Source: Escherichia coli (lineage in GTDB: Bacteria; Pseudomonadota; Gammaproteobacteria; Enterobacterales; Enterobacteriaceae). From it: a stretch of 64,000 nt of DNA. The stretch's first letter is position 1. The number at the start of each line of letters is the position of its first letter. The notes under the pieces are model-generated. The model had not been told where the DNA came from, searched no databases, and was given only the letters and a program-made list of their open reading frames with translations. Position numbers and translations under genes: made by a program. The stretch is taken from the NCBI RefSeq assembly GCF_046105845.1, contig NZ_CP151004.1. One strand, 5' to 3'. Positions 33,150 to 35,276 of the stretch are shown here, piece after piece.

Positions 33150-33291
33150 CGGTAAAGCCCTCACCGAAGCGAGGGCTTGAAGGAGAAGGGTTATGATGCG
33201 ACTTGTCATCATACTGATTGTACTGTTACTCATAAGTTTCCCAGCTTATTAACAGTCAGTCTCAGGGGAGGAGTCATCCTCCCTTACCCTT
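33150..33291 (-). ncRNA. sibC: SibC antisense sRNA (antitoxin to ibsC); boundaries approximate
   Basis: Opposite strand of ibsC; putative sigma70 promoter (TTGACA, 17-nt spacer, TAATTT) at 33299-33327 and a minus-strand GC hairpin (33165-33188) with T-rich tail at the other end. Confidence 0.6.
33193..33252 (+). CDS. ibsC: Type I toxin IbsC (19-aa hydrophobic peptide)
   Basis: SD aggagaaggg then ATGATG...; translation MMRLVIILIVLLLISFPAY, one residue different from the IbsC sequence I recall; not in ORF track because it is too short. Confidence 0.85.
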   Translation: MMRLVIILIVLLLISFPAY

Positions 33292-33298
33292 ACTCACT

Positions 33299-33327
33299 AA
33301 ATTAGGTTAAAGAATCAACGATGTCAA
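33299..33327 (-). promoter_or_regulatory. Putative sigma70 promoter of sibC
   Basis: Minus-strand TTGACA (33322-33327) with 17-nt spacer to TAATTT (33299-33304). Confidence 0.45.
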
Positions 33328-33352: not shown

Positions 33353-33901
33353 TCACCACTCCCAGACTTTCGACGGTGTAACCACCGCAGGAAGTGGGAT
33401 ATCCCACTCTTCAACGGGGAGTTTTTCCACCAACTGACAATCATGCGCATAACCCACCGGTTGCATTTTATAGTGCTGCCAGTTTTGTAAGGTTCGATCA
33501 TAAAAACCACCGCCCATTCCCAGGCGCTGACCGTACTCATCAAAGGCGACCAGCGGTGTGATCAACACGTCTAATCGGGAAAGGGGTAGCACGTCACGCA
33601 CATCCAGTTTTGGCTCATGGATCTTCAACCTGTTCATCACCAGTTCGCTTTGCGGATGGTAATTCAGGAACAGCAAATTACCGGCACTAAAGGGATGCAA
33701 AACTGGAAGATATACGCGCTTACCGGCGCGCCAGAGTTGTTCTATGAGTGGCTGGGTGTCGAGTTCGCCATCAAAAGAGAGGAATACAGCGACCGTATGC
33801 GCCATCACCACTGGGGGATAAGTCATCATCCGGGTAGCAGCTTGTTGACCCATTTCCTGCTGTTGTTCCGGCGTTAACGCACGACGACGTTGCCGAATCA
33901 T
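33353..33901 (-). CDS. ygfA: 5-formyltetrahydrofolate cyclo-ligase
   Basis: ORF 33353..34099 trimmed to MIRQRRRALTPEQQQ... at 33901 (182 aa). The ORF-track 248-aa version runs through ssrS; an alternative start MTQLPEL at 33955 cannot be excluded. Confidence 0.88.
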   Translation of the reverse strand: MIRQRRRALTPEQQQEMGQQAATRMMTYPPVVMAHTVAVFLSFDGELDTQPLIEQLWRAGKRVYLPVLHPFSAGNLLFLNYHPQSELVMNRLKIHEPKLDVRDVLPLSRLDVLITPLVAFDEYGQRLGMGGGFYDRTLQNWQHYKMQPVGYAHDCQLVEKLPVEEWDIPLPAVVTPSKVWEW

Positions 33902-33973
33902 TTTGCGGATTTCTTGTCGGGATAATGTCAGTGGGAGTTCTGGTAGTTGCGTCATGGCTGGTGCCAGATAAGA

Positions 33974-34159
33974 AGGGAATCTCCGAGATGCCGCCGCAGG
34001 CTGTAACCCTTGAACCCTTGGTTCAAGGTGAATGTGTCGTCGCAGTTTTAAGGCTTCTCGGACGGACCGAGCATGCTCACCAACCGCGGAGCGCCACATT
34101 CTTGTGGTATGAAATATCGGCTCAGGGGACTGGCCCGCTTGCGAACATCTCAGAGAAAT
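33974..34159 (-). ncRNA. ssrS: 6S RNA (RNA polymerase sigma70-holoenzyme regulator)
   Basis: Minus-strand sequence AUUUCUCUGAGAUGUUCGCAAGCGGGCCAGUCCCCUGAGCCGAUAUUUCAUACC...GGAGAUUCCCU matches the E. coli 6S RNA as I recall it; located between zapA and ygfA. Exact 3' end uncertain by a few nt. Confidence 0.93.
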
Positions 34160-34200
34160 TTTGTCTTCACGGTTACTCTACCACAGTAAACCGAAAAGTG

Positions 34201-34596
<396 letters not shown>

Positions 34597-34697
34597 CTAT
34601 AGCTACCCTGATGAGAAGAGACAAGCCCTTTTCTGGTCCACCAGGGCCCAAAGTGGTAGCATATCATGAATATTCCTCCCTTTGACGACGAATGCTT

Positions 34698-35276
34698 ATG
34701 TCTATACAGAACGAAATGCCTGGTTACAACGAAATGAACCAGTATCTGAACCAACAAGGGACGGGTCTGACCCCAGCTGAGATGCATGGTTTAATCAGCG
34801 GGATGATATGTGGCGGTAACGATGACAGCTCATGGCTGCCGCTACTTCACGACCTGACGAACGAAGGCATGGCTTTCGGTCATGAGCTGGCACAGGCACT
34901 GCGTAAAATGCACTCTGCCACCAGCGATGCCCTCCAGGATGACGGCTTCCTTTTTCAGCTTTATCTGCCTGATGGCGATGATGTCAGCGTTTTCGATCGG
35001 GCTGATGCGCTGGCAGGTTGGGTCAATCACTTCCTGCTTGGTCTTGGCGTTACGCAACCGAAGCTGGACAAAGTGACCGGCGAAACCGGTGAAGCCATCG
35101 ACGATCTGCGTAACATCGCGCAGTTGGGCTACGACGAAGACGAAGATCAGGAAGAGCTTGAAATGTCGCTTGAAGAGATCATCGAATACGTTCGTGTTGC
35201 CGCGCTGTTATGCCACGACACCTTTACTCATCCGCAACCGACCGCGCCAGAAGTACAAAAACCGACTCTACACTAA
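34698..35276 (+). CDS. ygfB: UPF0149-family protein YgfB
   Basis: ORF 34692..35276 ([20 protein letters not shown]...); start at 34698 or 34692. Confidence 0.9.

Follow-up and report, generated by a model that had tools for sequence, protein, structure and literature searches.

The ssrS-fau (ygfA) transcription unit of Escherichia coli: 6S RNA boundaries, the start codon of 5-formyltetrahydrofolate cyclo-ligase and a C-rich leader

The 6S RNA of Escherichia coli K-12 binds the sigma-70 RNA polymerase holoenzyme and acts as a template for pRNA synthesis (e.g. PMC3299989). Its gene, ssrS, belongs to a zapA-ssrS-fau array that has been described as conserved (PMC7641849), and its linkage to ygfA (fau) has been published as a conserved trait of the γ-proteobacteria. 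Transcription of ssrS involves two promoters, P1 and P2, and the mature RNA is generated from the resulting precursors by RNase E/G and exonucleases (PMC12152304). Co-transcription of ssrS and ygfA, Rho-dependent termination within ygfA (Chae et al. 2011, as cited in PMC3299989) and a translation start for ygfA mapped by ribosome profiling are likewise results of other groups.

The locus examined here lies in a 64,000-nt stretch of E. coli DNA (hereafter, the window) and is an ordinary instance of this system. The minus strand carries the array zapA, ssrS, fau and sibC/ibsC, with serA next on the plus strand (ORF listing, PGAP). The ssrS gene shares its sequence, neighbours and orientation with K-12 ssrS in the zapA-ssrS-ygfA array, the sole difference being a 1-nt discrepancy between databases at the 3' end. 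Similarly, the protein-coding gene is a full-length equivalog match to the Fau/MTHFS family, in which only the annotated start varies (182, 200 or 248 aa). We are therefore confident in reading the locus as the classical dual-function ssrS-fau transcription unit of E. coli, with 6S RNA followed by a 200-aa Fau translated from position 33955. A promoter just upstream of 6S and a distal one inside zapA would drive a precursor RNA, from which the 184-nt 6S RNA (34159..33976), folding as an independent domain, would be trimmed. Rho-dependent termination would end most transcripts a short way into fau, and those reading through would encode 5-formyltetrahydrofolate cyclo-ligase. Translation would begin at the AUG located at +21 after the 6S 3' end and yield 200 residues, with Met19 (33901) as an internal residue.

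All the elements of this unit (6S RNA, fau/ygfA, their co-transcription and the Rho terminator) are already known, and the 200-aa start is already found both in RefSeq and in a ribosome-profiling paper of 2016. The present analysis adds a consolidated case that the K-12/Swiss-Prot model of Fau lacks 18 residues and that the 248-aa model arises from an accident specific to Escherichia, together with the conservation across Enterobacterales of a C-rich leader devoid of a Shine-Dalgarno (SD) sequence. Its significance is mainly one of annotation hygiene, given that a 248-aa protein overlapping a well-known RNA gene occurs in mechanical ORF tracks and in some of the proteomes on deposit.

Table 1. 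Features of the zapA-ssrS-fau-sibC region, in window coordinates.
Feature	Position	Strand	Basis and remarks
zapA	34201..34530	-	ORF listing, PGAP; gene upstream of ssrS
Sigma-70 promoter-like site: ATGACA, 18-nt spacer, TG-extended TAGAGT	34175..34204	-	Consensus scan
ssrS, 6S RNA gene, 184 nt	33976..34159	-	Rfam RF00013; PGAP ncRNA with the same coordinates
Spurious 48-codon N-terminal extension of the 248-aa ORF	33956..34099	-	ORF listing; overlaps 6S
Pyrimidine-rich spacer of 20 nt, 6S 3' end to fau ATG	33956..33975	-	Sequence cttcttatctggcaccagcc, without SD
C-rich, G-poor segment, candidate rut	33898..33975	-	Spacer plus first 19 codons; 33% C, 14% G
fau (ygfA), 5-formyltetrahydrofolate cyclo-ligase, 200 aa	33353..33955	-	PGAP CDS; best-supported CDS
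Internal ATG, Met19 (start of the 182-aa model)	33899..33901	-	NC_000913.3 b2912; 5FCL_ECOLI; probably not the main start
sibC antitoxin, SIB RNA	33177-33327	-	Rfam RF00113, 136.5 bits, full length; directly downstream of fau
ibsC toxin gene, 19 aa	33193-33252	+	PGAP; opposite strand to sibC

The 6S RNA gene and its promoter region

A covariance-model search with Rfam RF00013 matched the 6S interval over its whole length (model positions 1-187 of 187), with a score of 139.8 bits and an E-value of 2.7e-29 against a gathering score of 46.4 bits, and the gene is identical to MG1655 ssrS at 183/183 nt. An earlier reading of the window made from the letters alone (the first-pass annotation) had recognized 6S RNA on the minus strand at 33974-34159, and this identification is confirmed by both the full-length match and the identity with K-12. 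Its 34159 end was also correct, but its 3' end reached 2 nt too far, the proper position being 33976. This end itself differs by one nucleotide among databases, since the gene is 183 nt long in MG1655 (3' end at 33977) and 184 nt long in PGAP and Rfam (33976). Alignment to the RF00013 consensus structure (cmscan) leaves only two non-canonical pairs, the closing stem, central bubble and terminal stem-loop of the 6S architecture are all present, and in the minimum free energy fold of the precursor 6S stays as one long interrupted hairpin.

The arrangement is widely shared. A 951-nt stretch around the locus matches E. coli strain Ecol_316 at 100% identity and can be found, at 95% identity or more, in 5,425 of 5,426 complete E. 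coli genomes; as a query, it hits 6,058 places spread over 5,425 records, including one place on a plasmid. The PGAP annotation used throughout was taken from a 100%-identical genome. For comparison beyond the window, 80 orthologous loci, all of them from Enterobacterales, were assembled, and the 3' ends of their 6S genes were placed by extrapolation, on the basis of nhmmer alignments with E. coli 6S. In 78 of these 80 loci, 6S lies directly upstream of fau and on the same strand.

A consensus promoter scan returned two sites where 1.4 were expected, a yield at chance level overall. The promoter-like site listed in Table 1 fits a transcription start approximately 9 nt ahead of the 5' end of mature 6S, and on the grounds of this position it is likely to be the ssrS P1 promoter. 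We take this assignment to agree with Kim & Lee 2004. Between 6S and the candidate starts of fau, scanning detected no promoter-like or terminator-like site.

The reading frame that opens within ssrS

A mechanical reading of the minus strand yields an ATG-initiated ORF of 248 codons (34099..33353) that starts inside ssrS and has its first 48 codons within or adjoining 6S. Taken at face value, this ORF would encode a Fau protein with its N-terminus specified by the 6S gene, in an overlap of coding and non-coding functions. In Escherichia the frame is indeed open from the ATG at 34099, and at least 1,000 contigs carry the identical 248-aa protein as a deposited entry, ABG70888.1 (E. coli 536) being one example. 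The remaining evidence, however, renders a genuine 248-aa protein vanishingly improbable. Outside Escherichia, stop codons located within 6S or immediately behind it interrupt the fau frame in essentially all loci, most often at positions -49, -66 or -74 as counted from the 3' end of 6S. In the long ORF, PF01812 and TIGR02727 both start at residue 61 (profile position 1) and the NF007661 match starts at residue 52, leaving residues 1-51 outside every family profile. Furthermore, pairing within the 6S fold takes up the start AUG completely (unpaired probability of approximately 0), this AUG lacks an SD, and both the curated and the PGAP annotation reject it. The 248-aa ORF is thus an artefact, which exists because the 6S sequence of Escherichia happens to lack stops in this frame.

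This outcome agrees with the first-pass annotation, which had noted that the ygfA ORF begins inside 6S and had deemed its N-terminus artefactual; in the profiles, no protein homology reaches upstream of 33955. The number of spurious codons had been put at 48 to 66. Given that the start at 33955 is favoured over that at 33901 (see below), the lower figure stands and the upper one does not. The artefact itself is real in the databases and has been propagated, with the 248-aa Fau appearing in some GenBank entries and automated calls. Separately, Fau sequences of Escherichia or Enterobacteriaceae type appear in public databases with the labels 'Staphylococcus aureus' and 'Vagococcus sp. WN89Y', most likely as a result of contaminated or mislabelled assemblies.

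The fau start codon

Full-length scores of the 200-aa protein exceed the equivalog or family cut-offs for NF007661 (447.7 bits against 343), TIGR02727 (179.7 against 84.9) and PF01812 (163 against 27), and a single substitution, T164M (codon at approximately 33464-33466), separates it from K-12 Fau. By analogy with the annotation of this near-identical K-12 protein, it would be the ATP-dependent enzyme converting 5-formyl-THF into 5,10-methenyl-THF. Two ATG codons downstream of 6S were left open as starts by the first-pass annotation. Both are in use: PGAP and RefSeq adopt 33955 (200 aa, MTQLPE..., for which MTQLPELPLTLSR and (M)TQLPELPLTLSR would be the distinguishing peptides), whereas the curated MG1655 annotation (b2912, NP_417387.3) and Swiss-Prot 5FCL_ECOLI (P0AC28 lineage) adopt the equivalent of 33901 (182 aa, MIRQRR...). 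The two codons, for which the MG1655 positions are 3056187 and 3056241, do give proteins of 200 and 182 residues, as had been stated, but the evidence does not leave them on an equal footing. Five independent lines, comprising profiles, structures, protein alignment, DNA comparison and ribosome profiling, favour 33955 over 33901.

The main competing reading holds that the 182-aa model is correct as it stands, with Met19 as the sole start and the preceding 54 nt as an untranslated leader. It has the authority of the K-12 reference annotation and of Swiss-Prot, at least 1,000 contigs carry the short form, and its profile scores remain well above the family cut-offs even though it loses positions 1-7 of PF01812 and TIGR02727 and positions 1-16 of NF007661. 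Against it, the first position of PF01812 and TIGR02727 coincides with residue 13 of the 200-aa form, and a complete domain, including the N-terminal helix with R13 and R17, is present only in the 200-aa reading. Residues 12-14 are also where the alignments with solved MTHFS structures set in (2jcb from B. anthracis, 1ydm from B. subtilis, 1sou and the human 3hxt), and an Arg stands opposite R17 in four cases out of four. The human equivalents of these N-terminal basic residues, K10 and R14, presumably contact ATP; a literature search on the role of the N-terminal Lys/Arg of MTHFS returned nothing relevant.

The comparison of orthologues points in the same direction. Among 23 orthologous proteins, M1, R13, Q14, I16 and R17 are conserved in at least 90% of cases, whereas position 19 can be M, L (the natural residue in Citrobacter), V, Q, H, I, T or E. 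At the DNA level, an ATG is located exactly 10 codons before R13 in 69 of the 77 loci with a full 6S (12 codons in Escherichia), while at the codon equivalent to Met19 only 10 of 78 loci have ATG, and none has GTG or TTG. Over codons R13-K18 of the 69 loci with the 10-codon spacing, position entropies are 0.58/0.27/1.44 and 63% of the codon differences are synonymous, a share that falls to 8% and 2% when the two wrong frames are read; conservation of R13, Q14 and R17 is 100%, with codon variation at the wobble position only. This pattern implies that the stretch upstream of Met19 is translated and that codons 13-18 are under clear purifying selection at the protein level. The protein lengths of the orthologues stem from gene callers that may share the same bias, but the comparison of R13-K18 codons does not depend on them.

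Direct evidence on initiation comes from the tetracycline-inhibited ribosome profiling (TetRP) of Nakahigashi et al. 2016 (PMC4909307), who report for ygfA a new ATG at -54, assigned to their class '1. new site', and list in a second table a 200-aa product whose DNA sequence equals the window read from 33955. At the -54 site the TetRP signal amounts to 150.5/4.68/0.62, compared with 0/1.75/0.33 at the annotated start; these are values of low depth in which one of the three samples is dominant and two show a weak signal at Met19 (PMC4909307). The published profile thus places the ygfA start at the ATG at 33955. Other sources were uninformative: the supplements of the TRAINSPOTTER N-terminomics and INRI-seq studies do not mention ygfA, fau or b2912, and a literature text search combining ygfA with ribosome profiling gave no results. 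Accessibility predicted from the partition function does not discriminate between the two AUGs (unpaired probabilities around 33955 and 33901 of 0.51 and 0.52 in the precursor and 0.58 and 0.52 in a processed fragment), and neither does SD strength, all candidates being SD-less and Met19 faring no better in this respect (-0.7 kcal/mol). With the main TetRP signal at -54, an unconserved Met19 and coding constraint upstream of it, we consider it very improbable that the 182-aa model is correct.

An intermediate arrangement, with 33955 as the main start and Met19 giving rise to a minor 182-aa isoform in E. coli, deserves separate consideration. Escherichia, Salmonella and a few further lineages do have Met19, the two AUGs are similarly accessible and equally SD-less, dual sites were reported for other genes in the same TetRP study (PMC4909307), and in two of its three samples the signal at the annotated site is small but not zero (1.75 and 0.33, against 4.68 and 0.62 at the new one). 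The low depth and the single dominant sample hence leave some room for a minor contribution of Met19 in E. coli. Nonetheless, the authors did not class ygfA as dual, the short form would be deprived of the invariant Arg, and the absence of Met19 from most relatives indicates that a short isoform is not a conserved feature. Such dual initiation appears unlikely, and initiation at 33955 stands as the preferred reading.

In consequence, the MG1655/Swiss-Prot P0AC28 reference probably truncates Fau by 18 residues, and the RefSeq PGAP model is probably the correct one. If so, the 182-aa model is missing an Arg that is invariant in the family, and studies based on a 182-aa construct may concern a crippled enzyme. 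The +21 start seems advisable when expressing or modelling Fau/YgfA, or when interpreting ssrS mutations that might touch fau.

The SD-less, C-rich leader and the flanking genes

With the 6S 3' end at 33976, the spacer amounts to 20 bases and the ATG of fau begins at +21; the first-pass annotation had the position of this start right, but not its distance from 6S, given as 19 nt. It had also remarked that neither start possesses a strong SD, and this is borne out by comparison with the neighbouring genes. No SD was detected at any of the three candidate starts, for which anti-SD duplex energies are -0.7, -1.5 (33955) and -0.7 kcal/mol (33901), whereas those of zapA, serA and pepP range from -5.8 to -9.2 kcal/mol. 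The orthologous leaders are likewise SD-less pyrimidine tracts, and the first ATG after 6S lies at +16 to +29 in 62 of 77 loci. The suggestion that the missing SD reflects translation from the processed ssrS-ygfA co-transcript is plausible.

The composition of this leader is unusual. In the 78 nt that follow 6S, the C/G ratio of 2.25 ranks at the 99.4th percentile among all segments of this length in the 64-kb stretch, and the C-rich, G-poor character is kept in 78 of 79 loci, with a median C/G of 2.31 as compared to 0.99 in the body of the gene. By composition only, the segment has the make-up of a rut site (approximately 70-80 nt or more, C-rich and G-poor), and it fits the published Rho-dependent termination as a candidate. 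In relation to the ssrS Rho terminator of Chae et al. 2011, what can be described here is a C-rich, G-poor stretch of some 80 nt that comes right after 6S and spans an SD-less start; on the other hand, both the rut element and its competition with translation are deduced from base composition. Weak, SD-independent initiation at the +21 AUG would probably expose the rut-like stretch to Rho, so that most transcripts would terminate and become 6S RNA and a ribosome-loaded minority would yield Fau. The competition between ribosome loading and Rho might then set the ratio of 6S RNA to Fau. A conserved leader of this kind would provide a simple and testable rationale for how one promoter can deliver much 6S RNA and little enzyme. 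The combined proposition, that the leader is a deliberate ribosome/Rho switch and that the K-12/Swiss-Prot model is also missing 18 real residues, is put forward tentatively, as we regard it as possible but somewhat doubtful when both parts are required to hold.

Several lineages depart from the usual spacing. In Klebsiella, Raoultella, Yersinia and a few others, the 6S-fau spacer spans 60-126 nt instead of approximately 20 nt; folding of these longer spacers from Klebsiella, Raoultella and Yersinia brought up no obvious intrinsic terminator or other element, and those of Yersinia are not C-rich.

Mechanical ORF calls also differ from PGAP in two genes of the vicinity. The ygfB ORF starts at 34692 (194 aa, plus strand), as against a PGAP start at 34698 (579 nt, 192 aa), and a 512-aa GTG-initiated ORF at 35089 over-extends pepP, annotated by PGAP as a gene of 1,326 nt. 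On the other side of fau lies sibC/ibsC, already known as a type I toxin-antitoxin locus. The 951-nt query is spread in two pieces over approximately 1,343 bp in certain strains of E. coli (e.g. NZ_CP101305.1, 970203-971545), and strains with such split matches have an additional 'Ibs family toxin' annotated; taken together, these two observations suggest an insertion of approximately 390 bp, or a duplication of the sib/ibs unit, downstream of fau.
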